DNA from: Plasmodiophora brassicae
Lineage: Eukaryota
Direction: 5' to 3'
NCBI GenBank assembly: GCA_036867785.1
Contig: CP145411.1
Coordinates: forward strand, 1,612,001 to 1,676,000
Length of the DNA: 64,000 nucleotides
Shown here: piece after piece, positions 1 through 26,478 of the stretch
How positions within the stretch are numbered: the stretch's first letter is position 1
Layout of the letters: the number at the start of each line of letters is the position of its first letter
Made by a program: the position numbers and the translations under genes
The notes under the pieces: generated by a model
Told to the model about the DNA's origin: nothing
What the model saw: the letters and a program-made list of their open reading frames with translations, nothing else
Databases searched by the model: none

Positions 1-3000
1 CGAGTACTTCTACCGTCAGGTAGAACAAGAGGTTCTGAAGGAAGTGCATCATGCGCTGGCGAAGCACTAGGGACCTGGAGAACGTTGACGATAGGTCGAG
101 TTCTCGCATTCTAAAACAGCGGTCAGAAGCCGGACGCGTTCAGCAACAACAACCACTGAACCTTTGCTGGTAGCGCCAAGTAATCCCGATCTGACGCTCG
201 ACATGTTTGATGAAGAAGATGTGTCTGAATAACAACTCGTACTTGGTCATCGCCTTTTTCGACAATACGATCGAGATGGGCCACTGCACAGCATATTCCA
301 GCGTAAACGCCTCGATACCAGTAAGCGGCGACCCGGTCGGGCGATGAAGTGTCTCAGACGAGTGCATCGTTCGAGAATACGCGTCATTAGCAACATTGTG
401 GATCACATTCCTAAACGATAACGCAGGTTGGCTCATCTTCAACAGAAACGCAAGCAGGACACTCATACAGCTTCTCCAATAGTGCATGCTGCTCTAGACG
501 ACAAGAGATCTCATCGTGACCAAAGTCATCGCCTGCCGTTGAGAGTGACAGCTCCAGCAATGACTGCAGACGAGCAAGTCTCTGAGCAGAGACGGGCCGG
601 CTCAAATCTTCCTCCGCCGAATCTAAAAAGTGGACAAAGAAATCGCCCTGACCATGCAGGAAATACCGTTTGAGGCATCTGATCGATTCTTAATCAGAAA
701 AGACAGGTCGAACACGTCGGATGAAAAAATGACCTCAAGCGCGGCAACAAGTTGTTCTGCTGCAACAGCACGTCCAGCAATGCAGAGCTCGCGTAGCCAA
801 ATGCAGCATCGATGATGCTTCCATTACTAATAGAGCGACAAAGTCAGACCTGGGCTGGGCGGTGATTAACTGACGTATACAGAGCGGCGTCGAAGCCGAA
901 GGACTGGTCGGCATCTTGTGACGAATCCCGACCAGCTTGCCCAAAGGAGCACTGCCGAAGCACGTTGAGGTATTTTCCCGTCAGTAGGATCTTGTTGGAG
1001 AACTGCTGGAGAAACGCTGGCACATGCTCGTTTCTCACAACGTATCGTTCGTCCTAGCAGACGCAGCCGAGTAAGTAGCTGGCCTGACTGGACTGCTGGC
1101 ATGGCGCCTTACCCAGTACGAGTCATTGAAGTCACGCTCGAGGTTATCCCGTGTTATGTCATCACGAACCTACAAAAACTATCAGATCTGAGCCCATAGC
1201 ACCATTACGTAGCCGAACCCGTATTTGGAATTCATCGTATGGATCCTGGACAATTCCAAACTCGATCCATTTCCGTAACAGGACGAAATAGGGCTCCGAA
1301 CAGTCTTTCAGGATTTGAAAGTACAGGGCACGCGAATTCTCATCACTACCAGAAATCGTAAGAAACGCATCCAGTCAATTTGAGCTAGATGCCATCTTTA
1401 CCCCTCTTTGCAGTACAGGTCGTAGAGTACTTGGATTAGCGAACCTCCGCAAGCACCGGCGGCTGCACTAACAAGAACATGCAATGCCGATATCGTTGCA
1501 ATAGAAGGCTGGAGCTGGAACCACAGCTGCTGGAGGGACAGGTCAGGAGAATCCAGCTGGGCGATCTTGACAACGTACATCTGTCCCGACACATAAGTGG
1601 ACGATCGGCCACATCCATCAACGGGAATTCAACCAACCTCAAGAACCGCCTCCATCGCGCCAGCAAGTGCCTGGCTGACAAGGCCATACTCGTATCGGGA
1701 GCGCAACTGCCAATAGCGCCGTACTGTGAGACAGGTCGAGTATAACTAGCCCGCCTGGAAGCAAACCTTTACGAAGTGCACGATTTCCAGATACTGGTTG
1801 CACACAGGGAAGCATCGCTCGACTTGGAACTGCATCGTAACGCAAACTTGCGTAGCAGAAAGTTTGAACCCAAGGTTCGGCGAGGACGATAAGCCGACCC
1901 ATTCTGATTCGAGGCCGAGTAATGCCGTAAGAAGCGCCCTGCAAAGAAGACGCTCCTAGCAAAAGTCAAGAACCTGCTGACCAGCCCGTGCATTATTAGT
2001 CATACCTGTCGCTCTTTAGGAAGTTTGGCGAACGAAGGAGCTTTACCAACACGTCTCGCGCTTCGAGATTCCCGCAGCCACGAGGGGGAATACGGCACTG
2101 ACGCCTTTTGGACGCTCCAAGTGGACGCAGCGGAAACGTCGGACATGCTCGAATGCAGAGTATCAGCTGAAAAGTACACCGTTAACGCAGACTACAGAGA
2201 TGCCAGCGTGAGCGGTACATCGATCACAAGACAGCAATGTTGCAAAGCACGATTTGAGGACAACGCGGTCTCCACTTCTGACTGAACTTGTTGAATCTGG
2301 ATTTGATTCGGCTAATTGTGCTATGAGCATGTCTCGTGCAGATAATCATTTGCGACACAAGTACCATTCACAACCGTCCATCTTGATCTCGAGTCATTGG
2401 GAGATCGGGAGCATTCAACACGTCCCTCACTGGTTGCACTCAGATAGACAGCCTCGGCACCTGACCGAAGTGACAGCACGACATTCTGGAAATAACAAGC
2501 CAACGATCATCACATGGTAACGCAAATGTGTCATCAGACGTCAAGTACGTCACCAAACAGGAGCGGGCCGCGATCTCTCCAGCTTGTACAGTTCGTGATA
2601 CAAACCGGAAATGCGACAGGCCACGAAGACCGGACCTCGCCGTCTTCGTCGAATGCCACTGCCAGTTTGAAATGTCATTCGAAAGTGCCTGGAATCACAC
2701 ACTGCAACTTGTGCTGACCGTATTTGCCAGCTTGGGAACGGAGCGCAATCATATCGCCGAAATTGATTCGCAGAACAGAAGGGATGTCTGGGAGATCACG
2801 ATGGTGGGTTTGCCCATTCTTTGATTGCTGACGATGGACATACCTGTTTTTCTTGCCTCCTTGCGGCCGCCAATAGCATCCAGGGCTGCTAGAGACTTTG
2901 GAGACAACAACGGGGTCGACGACTTGGTTTTACAAACTGCATAGCTAATCAGCAAGACCTGGATGTGTTACACATCATATTATCACCTGGCTTCCTGGGA

Positions 3001-3570
3001 GGTGACAAAGGAAGACCTTCCAGTAAAGAGGTCGTGTCAATCGTAGTTGACATGGACGACGTAACGGTCGGCGACTTTTCTCGAGTCCCCATGGTCGAAT
3101 TCAGACTGCCAGGAGGGGCCGTTGGTAATGATGACGACGGCGGTGAATCCCGCGGGAGCGATACAAGATCCCTGTTACTACACATGAGAAACACGATGGA
3201 CGCGCGAGAAATCAGGCATACCTGACAGCGCCATCGTCGAGGATGTGCCAGAGAACGTACATGAACCTGGCGCAGTCCACCGGGCTGGAAGCAGTCACGT
3301 TACATCGGCCGACGAAACCACGCCAGACGAGGTGTCCACCAACCAATTCCGCATGTCGTTGAGACGAGCCAGGGTCCGATTGAACAGGTCGACGTCGGCG
3401 CATCGCCCCGGCAATCGCCGCGCCGCCTTCCTCACGTTGTACTCGTCGACTTTGCTCAGCGACGTCGCCATCTTGATCGTGCCCGCCAGCGACGCCGCCG
3501 CGCTCGGGTCCCCGCCCATCTCGACGGCGATCTCCCGGGTCAGCTGCGCGATCTCATCCGACGCCGCCAT
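1..3570 (-). CDS. TUBGCP2: Gamma-tubulin complex component 2 (GCP2/Spc97 family), multi-exon, 3' end beyond the window start
   Basis: GRIP-domain motifs in exons: GIEAFTLEYAVQWPISIVLSKKAMTKYELLFRHIFFIKHVERQ, KILLTGKYLNVLRQC, LSLQQLWFQLQP, QERLLCRALLTALLGLESEWV. Probable ATG at 3570 (MAASDEIAQL); linking the 5' exons to the rest is my manual splicing. Confidence 0.85.
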
Positions 3571-8382: not shown

Positions 8383-10812
8383 TCACCAGTAATCACCACA
8401 AGTGCACGCGCCATCGCGGAAGTGGTGGTGTCGATGGGCATCTCGAATGTAGATTTCGCGTTTGTACAGAGCGGAGGCTCTCTTGGCGGCTTCGTGGCAG
8501 TCGATGCAAATCGGCACATTCTTCACGGCGCGAATAGGCTCACTTTCCGGTAGGTAAATCAGAGCGCACACAATTGCAATCTTCTCACTGTGTACTGACA
8601 CCGACCGACGCGCATCGTCCTCCGATTCAGTCTGTTTCATGACAACCGTAACGTCAGGCGTGTACCCACTCTCGGCTAGGCGTTCCATGAGTTCCGTATG
8701 CTTGCATGAGAATTCGTACTCTTTGAGCAGTGGATCATCGGTGACGAACTCCAGCGATCGTGCGTTCGGTATCTGCAACCAAGTCCTTCCCGGGACCTTG
8801 CCCACGAGATACTGTGTCTTCATCCGTGTTCGAAGGTATGCGAGGTCGTAATACTGCTGGCATCTCGCGAACGTGTTCGCCAGTAGCATCCATCCGATTG
8901 CCAGGTCCTTTGGGGTCCACGCTGGAATAGTCAGCATGTGCTCGAACACACGTTTGCCTCGCGCGGTATCGTTCCACCATCGACATGCGGCCAGAAGCGT
9001 CGTCCAGCATGCGATATCGGATCCGGGCGACCCTCTGGCGATCCTTTCAGCAATGTCGAGGTTCCCAGCCCGACCGTGAAGATCAATAAGGCAGTTCAGC
9101 GACCGAGATGACAAGGTTGACGTCTTAGGATCTCCAGCGAACTCAGCAACGATCACAGTGGCACGGTCCAGGTCCCCAACATGGCTGCACCCAACGAGCA
9201 ACGAGGCTAACGTGTCCGGATTCGGGTTTACAGCGGCAGCTTTCATGGTCTCGAATGTCGCCAATGCCAGGTCCAACTTGGCATGGTGCCCGTAGGCGGC
9301 GATTATCGCGTTGTATGAGCTCGCGCCCGCCTCCGCAGCCTGGAACACATTCATGGCGAGATCGAGATGGCTGCTGCAAGAATACCCGGAGATGAACGCG
9401 CTAACGACAAGGTCGCTGTCCAAGAACCCCTTGCTGCGAGCAAAGTCCTGCAAGGTAACCAGGCCAGCCACGTCGCCAATGTGCCCGCAGGCGTTGACGA
9501 ACTTTGCTAGTAGGGGGCGATCGACCGGGACCTTATCACTGCACATTTGCTCGAACAGCCGCATGGGACGGGACAGCTTGTCGTTCTCATACAGCAGCGA
9601 GACCAAGGTGCTGAACGTGGTGAGGGACAACGGCAATTTCAGACTTCTCAACTGGACGAACATGGCAATGGCCCCACGAACGAGGCCACGATGGCCAAGG
9701 GCGGCAATGAATGCAGCGTAAACGGACTCGCTAAGCGGGCCTTCCTTGCTTCGAGCCTGAAAGACCACCTCTGTACTTTCGAGGTCCTTGCAGCGGTCGT
9801 AAGACGATATCAGTGCACACACGACGTCGTCGTGTTTCAACCAGGCCTGGCTGCATGCGTATTGGTGCAACTCACGTAACGCAGGGAGCCAGGATCTGCA
9901 GGTCCCACAGGCGGTTACAAGTTCTACGAAGGCGATGGTGCTGATTTCGGCAGCACGGTCCTCGAGAATCCGGAATACGGTCATCGCCTCGTCGATGTGT
10001 CCGTGTCGGGCCAGCTCAGTCAGGATAAGAGTCGACAACGAAGCGGTCGGATTCAGGCCCACCGACGTCAAGACTTGTACGATGCTCACAGCAAGCTCGA
10101 ACCTGCACTGGGAGAGAAGCGTACGCGTAAGGTTCAGGTACGTTGGAATATCGCGGCACGCAGGGTAGCGTTGTGATAACAGGCCATCCAGCAGTTGCTC
10201 GGCGAGATCCGCTGCTTGCGCATTACGAGCATCGGAGCAGCATTGAGCTGACAGTTCCATGAGCTTCGACGTGAACTCCGCGTTGTTCGTGATGGCGTCT
10301 GCAATGAGGGGTAATGCTAGATCCGGCTGATTGCTGAGCAAGCAGAGTTCGAGCATGCTGATCATGACGTCCATGGAGCGTGGAGCGTACTTCGTGTATC
10401 GGTCAACCGCAACCTGGGCAAGCGGTGGTACTGCGCTTCGGCATGCTTGGATGAACAGCGCGAACAGCGAATCGGAAATGACCAGACTGCGCGCTGCGAT
10501 CGTGTCCAACACAAGTGGGGCCTTCGCTGGCGCATTCGACTTGCAGAACGACATTATCGAAAGAAAGAAATCAATATCGGTCGGCAGTCCATCGCCGACA
10601 ACTCGCTCGTAGACCGCCCAGACGCGGTCTACGTCCCGCTCCTTCTCGAACACGGCGCACGCTAACGCCGCAGACGGCTTCTTCAGGAACGCATTGAACG
10701 CCGGCGAAGCAAGCGGCGATGGTGCTGGCGGATGCGAACAAAGCGATCGGCGAACGTGTCGCAAGACCGGTACCCGAAGCGCCCGTAATGCGTTGCGAAA
10801 CGACGAAGCCAT
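8383..10812 (-). CDS. PPR protein with E and DYW cytidine deaminase domains (candidate organellar RNA-editing factor), intronless, 809 aa
   Basis: PPR repeats (SYNAIIAAYGHH, VSAFISGYS, LIDLHGRAG), E motif CWTTLLAAC, PG box KVPGRTWLQI, GYTPD, HSEKIAI, CIDCH, C-terminal RDAHRHHHFRDGACTCGDYW. The N-terminus is Arg/Leu/Ser-rich and lacks acidic residues, like a mitochondrial presequence. Confidence 0.95.
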   Translation of the reverse strand: MASSFRNALRALRVPVLRHVRRSLCSHPPAPSPLASPAFNAFLKKPSAALACAVFEKERDVDRVWAVYERVVGDGLPTDIDFFLSIMSFCKSNAPAKAPLVLDTIAARSLVISDSLFALFIQACRSAVPPLAQVAVDRYTKYAPRSMDVMISMLELCLLSNQPDLALPLIADAITNNAEFTSKLMELSAQCCSDARNAQAADLAEQLLDGLLSQRYPACRDIPTYLNLTRTLLSQCRFELAVSIVQVLTSVGLNPTASLSTLILTELARHGHIDEAMTVFRILEDRAAEISTIAFVELVTACGTCRSWLPALRELHQYACSQAWLKHDDVVCALISSYDRCKDLESTEVVFQARSKEGPLSESVYAAFIAALGHRGLVRGAIAMFVQLRSLKLPLSLTTFSTLVSLLYENDKLSRPMRLFEQMCSDKVPVDRPLLAKFVNACGHIGDVAGLVTLQDFARSKGFLDSDLVVSAFISGYSCSSHLDLAMNVFQAAEAGASSYNAIIAAYGHHAKLDLALATFETMKAAAVNPNPDTLASLLVGCSHVGDLDRATVIVAEFAGDPKTSTLSSRSLNCLIDLHGRAGNLDIAERIARGSPGSDIACWTTLLAACRWWNDTARGKRVFEHMLTIPAWTPKDLAIGWMLLANTFARCQQYYDLAYLRTRMKTQYLVGKVPGRTWLQIPNARSLEFVTDDPLLKEYEFSCKHTELMERLAESGYTPDVTVVMKQTESEDDARRSVSVHSEKIAIVCALIYLPESEPIRAVKNVPICIDCHEAAKRASALYKREIYIRDAHRHHHFRDGACTCGDYW

Positions 10813-14035: not shown

Positions 14036-14176
14036 GAACCTGCGCGTCGACCAGGGCCTCGTCATTCGTTAAACAGGCTGGTTGGCGTTCCTTGTCCACC
14101 TACCGAGATCATGTTGCAGCACAATGGTATAGTGACAAGGTATGCAGTTGTTTGGTTTCGGGACGCATTTGCTTTT

Positions 14177-14278
14177 GAGATGATTAGTTTGAAACTTCTT
14201 ACCCCATGTGAATCGCTAGTTGATCACACCTCGTAAGACAGTGGGCCGCGGCCAGCGGATTCCATTGCAGAATGATCG
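14177..14278 (+). ncRNA. Orphan box C/D-like RNA, copy 1
   Basis: Intronic; C-like ATGATTA at 14180, ACTTCTTACCCC, long hairpin with GTAA loop, D-like ATGA at 14272. Confidence 0.75.
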
Positions 14279-14421
14279 CTTTTTTATCGCATTGTGTTCG
14301 TCTCGAACGTTTCATTTGACTGACAGCTCGTCTCAGGGGAGCACGTGTTGACTGGATAGCCAAGCGTGGCCGGGCGGTGTATACATCAGGTACATGTTTA
14401 TTGTTTTCTCCGTTTCTTTTA

Positions 14422-14524
14422 TCGAGATGATTATGAATAACTTCTTACCCCAAGTGAATCGCTAGTTGATCATACCACGTGAGGCAGTGGGCTGCGGCCA
14501 GCGGCTCTACTGTGGAATGATCGA
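14422..14524 (+). ncRNA. Orphan box C/D-like RNA, copy 2
   Basis: Intronic; TCGA/TCGA terminal stem, ATGATTA at 14427, ACTTCTTACCCC, hairpin with GTGA loop, ATGA at 14517. Confidence 0.78.
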
Positions 14525-14655
14525 ATTGAACAGTCCCATTTTTATTTGTCCATGCGCTTTCCAGTACTGACTGTTGCCTGTTGCAGATGATTGGGGGCCT
14601 GAGTAGAACGCAAATCAAGTCTTCTGCAGGTAACTTTTTTAAGTTGAAACTGACA

Positions 14656-14763
14656 GTTCGAAATGATTATGAAATTACTTCTTACCCCGAGTGAATCGCT
14701 AGTTGATCACACATTGTAAGACAATGGGCTGCGGCCAGCGGTTTCATTGTGGAATGATCGAAC
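14656..14763 (+). ncRNA. Orphan box C/D-like RNA, copy 3
   Basis: Intronic; GTTCGA/TCGAAC terminal stem, ATGATTA at 14663, ACTTCTTACCCC, hairpin with GTAA loop, ATGA at 14754. Confidence 0.78.
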
Positions 14764-14918
14764 GACCTTTTATTTCAGTACTCGTTGCCCTTATGTAGAC
14801 ACGAACTGACTGCCAGTGTTTGCAGAGCTAACCCCCCCCCCCCCCCCATTCTGCCGGTGCCTCGGTTGTCGTGACCAAGAACTGCGCAAAGGTAAACCTT
14901 TGTAACCGCTAATCATTT

Positions 14919-15000
14919 GCCACATGATGATCTATTCAGTTCTGCTCCTGAAAGCAAATTATTTGCATGTGTTGCAAACTATACCAAATTCGCTGATGGC
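14919..15000 (+). ncRNA. Box C/D snoRNA with two LSU guides (U38/snR61-like D' guide; D guide to the yeast Um898-equivalent site)
   Basis: C box ATGATGA 14924, D' CTGA 14948, D CTGA 14993, GCCA/TGGC stem. CAGTTCTGCT is antisense to LSU AGCAGAACUG; CTATACCAAATTCG is near-antisense to LSU CGAAUUUGGGUAUAG (one C fewer). Confidence 0.85.
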
Positions 15001-15097
15001 TTTAAAATTGTTCTGTTTTCAAAACCTGTGTGCGAAGTATGCTGACGTCGCCTCGTAGGTATACCGATTGGTTCAGTTGCACGATTTCCCTGCTCTG

Positions 15098-15176
15098 GTG
15101 ATGAGGTTCGTCTTAGACGGGCGGTCGTAAGCCGGGACTTACAACCTCGGTGTATTGACGAAGAATTAAACTCTGA
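15098..15176 (+). ncRNA. Box C/D snoRNA, U43/snR70-like (SSU Cm1639 equivalent)
   Basis: C box GTGATGA 15098, D CTGA 15173. GACGGGCGGT is antisense to SSU ACCGCCCGUC; the D' box is degenerate. Confidence 0.75.
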
Positions 15177-15304
15177 TTCTGGATTTCATTTTTCAAATCC
15201 TTTCTACTTGGGGGCTTTCTAACCGGGTGCACTGTGCAGGTTGCCATAACAGTTTCGTGACACGCAATGATGGTACGCCTGCCTAGTTTCTTATATTTCG
15301 GATT

Positions 15305-15375
15305 GCACGTGATGACCACACATAGACCTGTTCCGAGAGATATGCATGTGGACAGAATTCCTCGTTTCTGAAGCA
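15305..15375 (+). ncRNA. Box C/D snoRNA with two SSU guides (U25/snR56-like and snR57-like)
   Basis: C box GTGATGA 15309, D' CCGA, D CTGA 15368. CATAGACCTGTT is antisense (one G-U) to SSU AACAGGUCUGUG; GAATTCCTCGTT is antisense to SSU AACGAGGAAUUC. Confidence 0.9.
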
Positions 15376-15543
15376 CAATCACATTTGCTGTTTACCTTTT
15401 CTGCTATCTATGTTCAAGGTTGCTGACGTCTGGACGTTCCCAAACAGGTGATCTTCCTTGCCATCGGATATGTCGGTGGGCGTCGTGTCGAATGCGAAGC
15501 TCGCAGATATCGGGTATGAAGTCTTTTCTTCAATTTGTCGTTT

Positions 15544-15619
15544 GCTTCTGATGTTACACCATATTTGCTACTCTTGACTGTTGTGTGATGATTCTCTATC
15601 CACCAAGATCTCTGAAGCG
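15544..15619 (+). ncRNA. SNORD24: U24 box C/D snoRNA
   Basis: U24-type C box TGATGT; guides TATTTGCTACT (antisense to LSU AGUAGCAAAUA) and CCACCAAGATCT (antisense to AGAUCUUGGUGG); internal C' GTGATGA; D CTGA 15612. Confidence 0.92.
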
Positions 15620-15769
15620 TTGTCTGCTCTTTGCCGTTCCTTTTCGTAGTCTTTATGATCATTAACATGGTTGCGTAGGGCCTTCCCTGGTCACTTTCAT
15701 CATATCAAACCTTACCTCCCCGCCAAGGCTCATCAGGTACGCGCATTTGCGTTTCGACCGTCATTTCTT

Positions 15770-15854
15770 GTGATGAACGTGCATCTCGCCAATCGAATTC
15801 GTTTGCCATGTCAGCAACGGGCAATGTGACTAGTTGATGCTGCCTTCCTTCTGA
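15770..15854 (+). ncRNA. Box C/D snoRNA, snR52/U83-like (SSU Am420 equivalent)
   Basis: C box GTGATGA 15770. TGCTGCCTTCCTT directly before D box CTGA 15851 is antisense to SSU AAGGAAGGCAGCA, and the D+5 rule lands on the A420-equivalent. Confidence 0.9.
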
Positions 15855-15967
15855 ATCGCTTCATTTGCCGTTTATGTCCGCGTGTCCGTTGACCAGCCAA
15901 CTAATCGATCCGCTGTGTAGGCATGCCAGGGTAAGATGCTCCCCCCTTTTTTTCACGTCCGCCTTTC

Positions 15968-16040
15968 GAATGATGAACAACCAAGTCCAATTCTTAACCA
16001 ACCATGTTGAACACGAAAACGAGCTTTTTAAATCTGATTC
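15968..16040 (+). ncRNA. Box C/D snoRNA, U36/snR47-like (SSU Am619 equivalent)
   Basis: C box ATGATGA 15970; ACGAGCTTTTTAA is antisense to SSU UUAAAAAGCUCGU; D CTGA 16034; GAA/TTC stem. Confidence 0.9.
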
Positions 16041-16155
16041 CCAACATTCCCCGCGTTTCGTCACTTGATCGTCTGCCCTGATCGCTGACCGTGCGCCCTG
16101 CTTTGTACAGACGTGACACAATGCATATTATAAACACTATGAATATTATTACGTT

Positions 16156-24339: not shown

Positions 24340-26478
24340 TCATTCGTCATCGAGGCGGGGCTCACGAGATTCACGCTCGAGTTCGCGTTCAGCTTCGCGA
24401 GCACGGCGCTCATCTTCGCGCCGGTATCGAGCGGCCTCGGCCTGCATGGCCTTGATCTCGTCAGGACCCAAGCGACCTGCGTCGTGCTGGATCTCGACGT
24501 TCGACCTGGCGCCCGTCACTTTGTCGCTAGCCGTAACCGTCAGCAAACCGTTCGCGTTCAGGTCGAAGCAGACATCGATCTTCGCCTCGCCCTTCTTCGC
24601 GCGCTCGATGCCAGTGATCGTGAACTGGCCCAGCAGGTGGTTCCCGTCCGTGATGACACGTTCACCTTCAAAGATACGCACGTCGACGCTGGTCTGAAAG
24701 TCCTCGACGGTCGTGAACTCGTGCGACTTCTTGCATGGAATCGCCGTGTTCCTCGGGACGACAACGGCGAACTGCTTGCCTTCGCATTCAATACCGAGCG
24801 ACATGGGCACAACGTCGACCAGCAGCAGTGAATCCGTCTTCACGTTCCGAACACCACTCAAAATCGCGCCCTGGACACTGGCGCCAATCGCGACGGCCTC
24901 ATCTGGGTTGACAGACTTGCAGAGTGTCTTGCCGTCGAAAAAGTCGCTGAGGATCTGCTGGACACGTGGGATACGAGTCGACCCACCAACGAGGACGACT
25001 TCGTCGACTTCGTTCTTGGCACACTTGGCATCGGCCAGGACGCGCTTGACAGACACCATGCAGCGCGCGAACGTCTCATCACACAGCTCGTTGAGCTTGT
25101 CACGCGTCAACTGAACCGACGCTTCGCCATCGTCGTCAAGGGCGACCTCGACGAATGTCGACTTGACAGACGACAACTCGCGCTTCGCGGTCTCACAAGC
25201 GGAACGCAACTTGCGAAGCAGGCGCTCGTTGCCCTTGAAGATGTCCTTGCCATCACGTTGCTTGGAGATCTCGTTCCGGACCCAGTTGCAGATCGCCGTG
25301 TCGAAGTCTTCGCCACCGAGGTGCGTGTCACCGGCCGTCGCACGAACCTCGAACACGCCGTTGTCGATTCGCAGCAACGACACGTCAAACGTACCACCGC
25401 CCAGATCGAAGACAAGAACGTTCGTCGCTGGTGGTTCCGTTCCATCGTCTTCATCATCGCCAACCATGCTGTTCTTCGCCTTAATGTCAAGACCATACGC
25501 CAAAGCCGCAGCCGTGGGCTCATTGATGATTCGGAGAACGTCAAGGCCGGCAATTGCGCCAGCGTCCTTCGTCAGGCGACGCTGGATGTCGTTGAAGTAG
25601 GCGGGAACCGTGATGACCGCCTTGGTGATGCTGCGTCCGAGAGCCGCTTCAGCGCAACGTTTCATCTCCTCCAGGACCATCGCCGAAATCTGTTCCGGAA
25701 GATACGACTTACCGCCAACAGTGATGAGGGGGGCCCCGTTCGCTGGATGCTCGGTGACCTTGAACGGCATCAGCTTGATTTCCTCAAGGCATTCCGAGTA
25801 CTTCCTGCCGATGATACGCTTGATGTTGAACAGCGTGTTCGTCGCGTTGTTGGCAGCCTGGCGCTTGGCAGCGTCGCCGACAAGTCTTCGGCCGTCGTCC
25901 GTGAACGCAACCCAAGACGGCGTCGTCCGATCGCCGCTCGTGCTAGTCAAAACACGAGCCTTGCCGTTCTCCCATATGGCAACACAGGAGAACGTCGTGC
26001 CCAGATCAATGCCGATAACGGGTTCGTTCAGCAGTGCACGCTTCTCGAGAGCAGCAGCGACTTTGTTCAGGCCATCAGTCAGCGCGTCGTTAGCGCGATC
26101 ATGGGTAAGGCCTTGCTCGAACGCAGCCTTGGCCTCCTCGAGCTTGTCCTGCTTGAACAGGGCGAATCCAAGACGGCTGTACGCTTTCGACCACGTCGCA
26201 TCCAGCTTGATCGCCATGTTGGCATCCTTTACCGCATCCTCGTACTTCTCCAGGCAAGCGAACGCCGCACTCCTGTTCGAATAGAACACCTTGTCATCCG
26301 GGTCGGCGTGGATCGCGGTCGAGAACTCCCGGATGGCCTTTCGGTAATCCCCAGCAGAGAACGCAGCATTGCCCCGCGCCTTGGCAGCAGCAGCGAACGG
26401 CTTAGCCAACGCCGTTCCGGGTGCTGGCACACCCTGCAGGTTCAGGCCCTCCATCGACTCGTGCAGCGTCTTGCTCAT
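24340..26478 (-). CDS. TPR-Hsp70 fusion protein with truncated lid and no EEVD, intronless, 712 aa
   Basis: Three Hop/STI1-type TPRs, then GIDLGTTFS, TVPAYFND, RIINEPTAAA, FDLGGGTFDVS, LVGGSTRIP, linker LLLVDV and SBD-beta; ends EPRLDDE. Confidence 0.92.
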   Translation of the reverse strand: MSKTLHESMEGLNLQGVPAPGTALAKPFAAAAKARGNAAFSAGDYRKAIREFSTAIHADPDDKVFYSNRSAAFACLEKYEDAVKDANMAIKLDATWSKAYSRLGFALFKQDKLEEAKAAFEQGLTHDRANDALTDGLNKVAAALEKRALLNEPVIGIDLGTTFSCVAIWENGKARVLTSTSGDRTTPSWVAFTDDGRRLVGDAAKRQAANNATNTLFNIKRIIGRKYSECLEEIKLMPFKVTEHPANGAPLITVGGKSYLPEQISAMVLEEMKRCAEAALGRSITKAVITVPAYFNDIQRRLTKDAGAIAGLDVLRIINEPTAAALAYGLDIKAKNSMVGDDEDDGTEPPATNVLVFDLGGGTFDVSLLRIDNGVFEVRATAGDTHLGGEDFDTAICNWVRNEISKQRDGKDIFKGNERLLRKLRSACETAKRELSSVKSTFVEVALDDDGEASVQLTRDKLNELCDETFARCMVSVKRVLADAKCAKNEVDEVVLVGGSTRIPRVQQILSDFFDGKTLCKSVNPDEAVAIGASVQGAILSGVRNVKTDSLLLVDVVPMSLGIECEGKQFAVVVPRNTAIPCKKSHEFTTVEDFQTSVDVRIFEGERVITDGNHLLGQFTITGIERAKKGEAKIDVCFDLNANGLLTVTASDKVTGARSNVEIQHDAGRLGPDEIKAMQAEAARYRREDERRAREAERELERESREPRLDDE

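Follow-up and report, generated by a model that had tools for sequence, protein, structure and literature searches.

Three paralogous intronic box C/D RNAs of Plasmodiophora brassicae with a predicted guide towards domain II of the large-subunit rRNA

Box C/D small nucleolar RNAs include non-methylating or dual-function members (U14, U8, U22, U13/snR45, snR4, and snR190) that carry conserved elements beyond the guide as well as internal hairpins. Box C/D snoRNP assembly that is coupled to splicing typically has the RNA ~50 nt ahead of the branch point, and the 5' end of U1 snRNA reads ACUUACC. Three intronic RNAs of P. brassicae invite comparison with each of these systems and with the canonical intronic C/D guides that share their host gene. 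They lie in the window, the whole 64-kb stretch of DNA analyzed here, and a preliminary description based on its letters had presented them as copies of an orphan, non-methylating C/D-class RNA whose invariant motif is complementary to the 5' splice site. The copies and their parts are as follows:

14176-14279, + strand: copy 1, box C/D RNA recognized by sequence, alignment, 12-mer, and hairpin; box C 14180-14186, putative guide 12-mer 14194-14205, box D' (GUGA) 14208-14211, box C' (UGAUCA) 14221-14226, hairpin 14239-14267, and box D (AUGA) 14272-14275.
14422-14524, + strand: copy 2, box C/D RNA recognized by sequence, alignment, 12-mer, terminal stem, and hairpin; box C 14427-14433, putative guide 14440-14451, box D' 14454-14457, box C' 14467-14472, hairpin 14485-14512, box D 14517-14520, and terminal stem UCGA/UCGA.
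14657-14762, + strand: copy 3, box C/D RNA recognized by sequence, alignment, 12-mer, terminal stem, and hairpin; box C 14663-14669, putative guide 14677-14688, box D' 14691-14694, box C' 14704-14709, hairpin 14722-14749, box D 14754-14757, and terminal stem UUCGA/UCGAA.

The alignment of the copies (three sequences, 128 columns) bore out the presence of three ~100-nt paralogs with a mean column identity of 84%, and the 12-mer ACTTCTTACCCC, described earlier as invariant, was exact in all three. A search of both strands of the 64-kb window allowing up to one mismatch returned three matches, all exact and all within the copies, and no shuffle out of 100 gave three matches of this 12-mer. Variable columns dominated the flanks and spacers (7/7, 2/2, 10/11, and 12/12) and were absent from the 12-mer (0/12), D' (0/4), the D'-C' loop (0/9), C' (0/6), the hairpin loop (0/5), and D (0/4). 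The bases preceding box D varied, as had been noted, at two of the four columns between hairpin and D and at five of the 13 columns in the 3' strand of the hairpin. Across the three copies, blocks of 12, 19, and 16 positions were invariant or near-invariant while the spacers were saturated with change, a block-wise conservation which argues that the copies are old duplicates under selection and not recent repeats.

Box C (AUGAUUA) and box D (AUGA) were likewise invariant in all three copies and both are non-canonical, AUGAUUA fitting RUGAUGA at six of seven positions and AUGA fitting CUGA at three of four. The departures face each other, with U-A replacing the usual G-C. A D'-like GUGA was identified two variable nucleotides past the 12-mer in every copy, followed 9 nt further by a C' box UGAUCA, both of them invariant. 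This C'/D' motif has a C-G in place of the usual pair (G45-C62 replaces the C-G of CUGA/UGAUGA), and alignment columns 22:109 (U-A) and 45:62 (G-C) form standard pairs in all three copies. The terminal stems are clearest in copies 2 and 3 as previously stated (4-5 bp, vs. 3 bp in copy 1), with 91.7% of cells paired at columns 12-15:113-116. By sequence, the k-turn geometry has exactly 3 nt separating the stem from the GA of box C, with box D abutting the stem. Assignment of the three intronic copies to the C/D class holds, and they appear to be complete C, D', C', D RNAs in which each protein-binding motif carries a compensated change. The statement that they have no position for a methylation guide was in error, since the 12-mer lies directly upstream of an overlooked D' box that is paired with C'.

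No Rfam family matched the copies at gathering thresholds. Rfam 15 searched at E up to 10 over 2.4 kb reported nothing on the three copies, while copy 2 searched alone gave no + strand match and just two minus-strand miRNA matches (E 5-7). The pattern C-guide-D'-C' had no match as an orthologue in the metagenome collection. The three copies probably constitute a C/D snoRNA family that is absent from Rfam and lineage-specific. The window also encodes a Nop56 orthologue, a core box C/D snoRNP protein (572 aa, intronless, 38741-40459, - strand; 526.7 bits vs. human, 485.2 vs. yeast, and 438.6 vs. Chaetomium), which shows only that the C/D machinery exists.

Splicing of the host gene was evaluated with contigs of three runs from three studies (X15, X16, and X18), which are only guessed to be RNA, and of one DNA run (X14). 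The host transcript was GT..AG-spliced in all three putative RNA runs and not in the DNA run. The host gene comprises the following features:

14140-14336, + strand: host intron 1, with copy 1; joint present in X16 and X18 (one contig apiece), absent from X14.
14390-14586, + strand: host intron 2, with copy 2; joints in X15, X16, and X18.
14630-14825, + strand: predicted host intron 3, with copy 3; GT..AG and CTGAC present in the sequence.
14892-16110, + strand: rest of the host gene, recognized by Rfam, joints, and guide matches.
14892-15058, + strand: host intron; joint in X16.
15273-15447 and 15514-15678, + strand: host introns; joints in X15, X16, and X18.
15737-15920 and 15931-16110, + strand: host introns; joints around the micro-exon in X18.
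15921-15930: 10-nt micro-exon GCATGCCAGG between two snoRNA-bearing introns; contigs of X18 only.

The proposed location of each copy alone in a consecutive intron was confirmed by GT..AG joints for introns 1 and 2 and stands as a prediction for intron 3, for which no joint occurred in any of the four runs and a poly-C run at 14832-14850 breaks the contigs. This run of ~18 C lies in host exon 4 on the + strand; the contigs of all runs break at it and one X16 contig is short by one C. The contigs of the four runs contained no differing letters, and the reads therefore provide no relatives for covariation. One X15 contig joins exon 2 to a cryptic acceptor within copy 2 (GUGAG|GCAG; 14390-14465/14466), a splice form that would destroy this copy.

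Copy 1 is followed by a branch-site-like CTGAC with its A at 14323, 44 nt past the copy, and the corresponding branch A lies at 14570 for copy 2 (45 nt) and at 14809 for copy 3 (47 nt). The distance from snoRNA 3' end to branch A was 45-50 nt in four of the five intronic neighbors, namely those with a CTRAY branch site. A position 44-47 nt upstream of the branch A agrees with the spacing rule for splicing-dependent assembly. Non-canonical boxes C and D, together with the single contig of a single run (X15) that uses the acceptor within copy 2, could be taken to mean that the copies are decaying or non-functional snoRNA duplicates kept only through their intronic location. This is highly improbable given the 12 + 19 + 16 positions kept amid saturated spacers, the compensatory nature of the box changes in both motifs, and the maintenance of the branch-site distance.

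Five intronic neighbor snoRNAs were seen in the host gene plus one further candidate:

14919-14999, + strand: snR61-like (snR61/SNORD38, RF00476); Rfam 37.2 bits, below the gathering score of 45.
15092-15183, + strand: C/D-like candidate (GUGAUGA ... CUGA) with a 10-nt complement to SSU ACCGCCCGUC.
15304-15376, + strand: snR56/U25-like; Rfam.
15543-15619, + strand: SNORD24; Rfam 61.3 bits.
~15766-15858, + strand: U14-like candidate, intronic, with box C GUGAUGA and pre-D guide UGCUGCCUUCCUU|CUGA.
15966-16043, + strand: SNORD36; Rfam 31.0 bits.

The candidate at 15092-15183 lies within a stretch that the RNA contigs read as exon (15059-15272), with an alternative acceptor at 15116 inside it (X16). 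The guide UGCUGCCUUCCUU of the U14-like candidate is presumably complementary to the 18S segment at which U14 domain B is directed, and the candidate went unreported by Rfam at E up to 10. Rfam overlooks snoRNAs of this lineage, the U14-like neighbor included.

In eukaryotic LSU rRNA, the LR6 primer site is preceded by a GGGUAAGAAG-like segment, and 11 of the 12 bases of the 12-mer are complementary to GGGUAAGAAGU in LSU rRNA of other eukaryotes. The rRNA stand-ins scanned for guide targets came from other eukaryotes; model positions 1-773 of the SSU and 1890-3401 of the LSU lie outside them and may hold a better target. Two of the stand-ins, L006 and L007, are contaminating eukaryotic rDNA contigs in prokaryote assemblies that were retrieved with the pattern GGGTAAGAAGT + 40-70 nt + primer site; they match the 11-mer by construction. 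Both were classified by Rfam as LSU_rRNA_eukarya and both read CUUUAAAUGGGUAAGAAGUC. Against the stand-ins, ACTTCTTACCC:GGGTAAGAAGT was the only Watson-Crick run of at least 11 common to the three copies (in the LSU of L006 and L007), and the match stops 3 nt before GUGA. The best guide duplex in both LSUs had an energy of -17.6 kcal/mol and spans +4 to +14 from D' with 11 Watson-Crick pairs, position +5 being paired and facing the middle G. With GGG in the target, the 12th C of the guide meets a mismatch, and the duplex does not begin before +4. In both contigs the predicted site lies 74 nt upstream of the A targeted by the snR61-like neighbor.

The identical scan returned 10-11-nt rRNA matches adjoining a D or D' box for three neighbors (snR61-like, snR56-like, and U24), and the new RNA therefore behaves like its neighbors. 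Judged from its sequence, the RNA is probably a single-guide methylation guide for one G in domain II of the LSU rRNA, present as three paralogous snoRNAs. The earlier designation as an orphan, non-methylating RNA was not supported, given the D' guide geometry and the 11 of 12 bases complementary to LSU rRNA of other eukaryotes, nor was it refuted. For the organism's own LSU, the reading predicts GGGUAAGAAGU 74 nt upstream of AGCAGAACUGG, and an LSU reading like AGGUGAGAUAC would contradict it.

When 12-mers were shuffled, 91 of 20000 did as well against L006 and L007, a control that is biased because both contigs were fetched with a pattern containing the 11-mer. A further contig, L003, was found via the primer site without the 12-mer and gave a 9-nt match at the homologous place, equalled by 140 of 50000 shuffled 12-mers. 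L076, found via the upstream flank alone, reads AGGTGAGATAC there and gave a 6-nt match. These shorter matches indicate that the site varies among eukaryotes and is not universal. To our knowledge, no methylation is known at the predicted LSU G in yeast or human. A full 12-mer complement upstream of the primer site (GGGGTAAGAAGT) had no match in the metagenome collection. In the literature, a motif search for guide or target gave no paper on snoRNAs by title among the matches listed, and a search on snoRNAs in oomycetes gave no snoRNA catalogue among the matches listed.

L003 and L076 derived from scans of viral contigs. The LSU primer site gave five loci, among which L003 and L004 hold a short LSU piece only and L001 stops short of the site; the upstream flank gave 110 stretches, of which 80 became loci and one of those (L076) was LSU-like. 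The SSU 5' primer core gave eight loci and the sarcin-ricin motif two, none with rRNA in either case, and the NS1 primer had no match in these contigs. In L003 (1-130) and L004 (2380-2430) the LSU piece ends right past the LR6 primer site and is followed by unrelated sequence; Rfam called neither of them LSU.

The likeness of the 12-mer complement to a 5' splice site had suggested a splicing-related role through CUUACC. The last donor of the host (GGGTAAGA, 15929-15936) is indeed a real donor, as seen from the micro-exon joint in X18, and has 8 nt in common with the 12-mer complement. It is the only one of eight host donors to match over more than 5 nt, the other seven sharing only GGTA or GGTAA. 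Because the proposed LSU target itself contains GGUAAG, the likeness needs no splicing role and is most simply a by-product of this motif. It is quite unlikely that the copies are orphan C/D RNAs whose 12-mer targets something other than rRNA, such as an snRNA, a tRNA, or pre-mRNA 5' splice sites including the last donor of the host. Such targeting would suit the full complement GGGGUAAGAAGU, which occurs in no rRNA examined, as well as the G|GUAAG within it and the 8-nt match at the real donor 15931. Set against this are the solitary donor match beyond 5 nt among the eight, the lack of any further 12-mer site in the window at up to one mismatch, the rRNA guides that make up all neighbors in the host gene, and the 11-nt LSU match, which is correctly placed for D' and accounts for the GGUAAG likeness.

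The RNA was previously described with a long hairpin, AAUCGCUAGUUG:CGGCCAGCGG. The sequence permits this fold, but 10 of the 11 pairs are invariant and it is no better than chance: the complementarity of its blocks was equalled by 17-26% of shuffles and the helix is worth only -4.7 to -8.9 kcal/mol. The long hairpin was rejected as unsupported for its unvarying pairs, the shuffles, and the weak energy. Of the GNRA-capped stem described with it, just 2 bp stand beneath the GNRA loop, where 83% of cells are paired. Between C' and D, a local hairpin has 11 pairs and 100% of cells paired; five of the pairs vary and all of these remain paired, mostly by G-C/G-U exchanges. It is worth -11.5 to -17.0 kcal/mol in the context of the whole RNA, and the isolated segments gave -13.4 (z -2.45), -15.9 (z -2.82), and -10.4 kcal/mol (z -2.16) for copies 1, 2, and 3, respectively; the shuffles that folded equally well numbered between 1 and 7 of 200 (1, 3, and 7). 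Covariation counts were reached by 337 of 500 shuffles, a control to which three sequences give zero power. The energy minimum of the whole molecule uses the long-hairpin helix in copy 3. The local C'-D hairpin is better supported and is preferred over the long hairpin, and the question is not regarded as settled. The local hairpin leaves ~16 unpaired nucleotides between C' and D, just 4 of them before D, and there is no D guide.

More is conserved than a simple guide requires, since the 9-nt D'-C' loop is invariant and the GC-rich top of the hairpin nearly so. As they were kept while the spacers were saturated, the 19-nt invariant D'-loop-C' and the 16-17-nt GC-rich top of the hairpin would mark extra contacts. 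A C/D snoRNP base-paired to pre-rRNA, whether at the LSU site or elsewhere, without methylating it, as a folding chaperone or processing factor likened to U14 domain A, U8, or snR190, could use them as further contact surfaces. Such a factor would explain the invariant loop (0/9) and hairpin loop (0/5) columns, for which a guide gives no reason; boxes C and D are both off consensus, no known family matches, and a target UGGG would start the duplex only at +4 from D'. It is nonetheless unlikely, as the guide stands at the distance from D' required for methylation and no pairing position is lost in either k-turn motif. Compared with the rRNA stand-ins, moreover, the other invariant blocks showed no pairing common to L006 and L007, the matches falling in spacers or variable GC-rich parts; the 9-nt match GAATCGCTA:TAGCGATTC occurred in L007 alone and at chance level. 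It is similarly doubtful that the copies are more than a plain guide, that is, a C/D RNP with extra contacts which acts either as a lineage-specific pre-60S chaperone clamping LSU domain II or as a guide for a non-ribosomal GGGGUAAGAAGU, for example of the 5' splice-site class.

Under the preferred reading as a methylation guide, each snoRNA would be released from its own intron of the spliced multi-snoRNA host transcript. Each copy would form a C/D k-turn (3-nt bulge, G.A/A.G, U.U, then U-A) closed by the short terminal stem, and an internal D'/C' motif (GUGA ... UGAUCA) with C-G for G-C. The sole guide would be the invariant ACUUCUUACCCC upstream of D', pairing within domain II of LSU rRNA with 5'-(N)GGGUAAGAAGU-3', which precedes the snR61/SNORD38 site by 74 nt, and under the box D'+5 rule fibrillarin would be directed to 2'-O-methylate the middle G. 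The C'-D stretch would be guide-free and folded as the 11-bp hairpin with ~16 unpaired nucleotides left between the boxes. This model starts from the observed sequence architecture, intron positions, host splicing, and complementarity to the LSU of other eukaryotes, and it predicts the site in the LSU of this organism, accumulation of a ~100-nt RNA, binding of C/D proteins, and methylation.

The copies would most likely be RNAs of an ordinary kind, new in their predicted target. If true, the reading extends the snoRNA catalogue of a poorly studied eukaryote by one guide family and its lineage-specific 2'-O-methylation site in LSU domain II, and in the C/D and C'/D' motifs alike the copies exemplify natural compensation at the Watson-Crick position beside the sheared pairs. 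The three snoRNAs open no new mechanism.

The window is gene-dense with ~55-60% G+C, long uninterrupted ORFs, and CTRAC-like branch sites. The higher score of its Nop56 with the human protein than with those of yeast and Chaetomium speaks weakly against a fungal source, the branch sites notwithstanding. Genes of the PPR-DYW type are rare outside land plants, and the window encodes an intronless 809-aa PPR protein (8383-10812, - strand) whose C terminus carries a DYW deaminase domain (E 3.2e-27). Matching clusters in the Atlas came from Rotifera and Streptophyta for this protein, and the Nop56/58 clusters were uninformative. A literature search for DYW in Plasmodiophora brassicae gave nothing related, and the passages of PMC11946409 on DYW outside plants held nothing bearing on this organism. 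In a single 712-aa ORF (24340-26478, - strand), a full Hsp70 domain is fused behind TPR repeats at the N terminus.

Among known systems, U14, U8, U22, U13/snR45, snR4, and snR190 resemble the copies in having conserved elements beyond a plain guide and internal hairpins. None of them matches the copies in Rfam, none of their known antisense elements was recognized in the copies, and the conserved element of the copies has ordinary D' guide geometry. U1 snRNA has CUUACC in common with the copies, and hence the complementarity to GGUAAG, a likeness of 6 nt only; the copies differ from it in being intronic, with C/D boxes and terminal stems and without an Sm site or the U1 fold. The canonical intronic C/D guides, represented by the snR61/SNORD38-like, SNORD24, SNORD36, and snR56/U25-like neighbors, are alike in their ~100-nt size with one RNA per intron, terminal stem, C/D k-turn, internal D'/C' pair, branch-site distance, and a 10-12-nt antisense element that ends a few nucleotides before D' and is complementary to a conserved core of LSU rRNA. 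In contrast, the copies have AUGAUUA/AUGA (U-A for G-C) and GUGA/UGAUCA (C-G for G-C), an 11-bp hairpin and not a guide before box D, and no Rfam family at E up to 10. snR61/SNORD38 (RF00476) differs from the copies in its own guide and target nucleotide, its canonical boxes, and its recognition by Rfam, and it has in common with them the host gene and the LSU domain, the snR61 target AGCAGAACUG in L006 and L007 lying 74 nt downstream of the predicted target.
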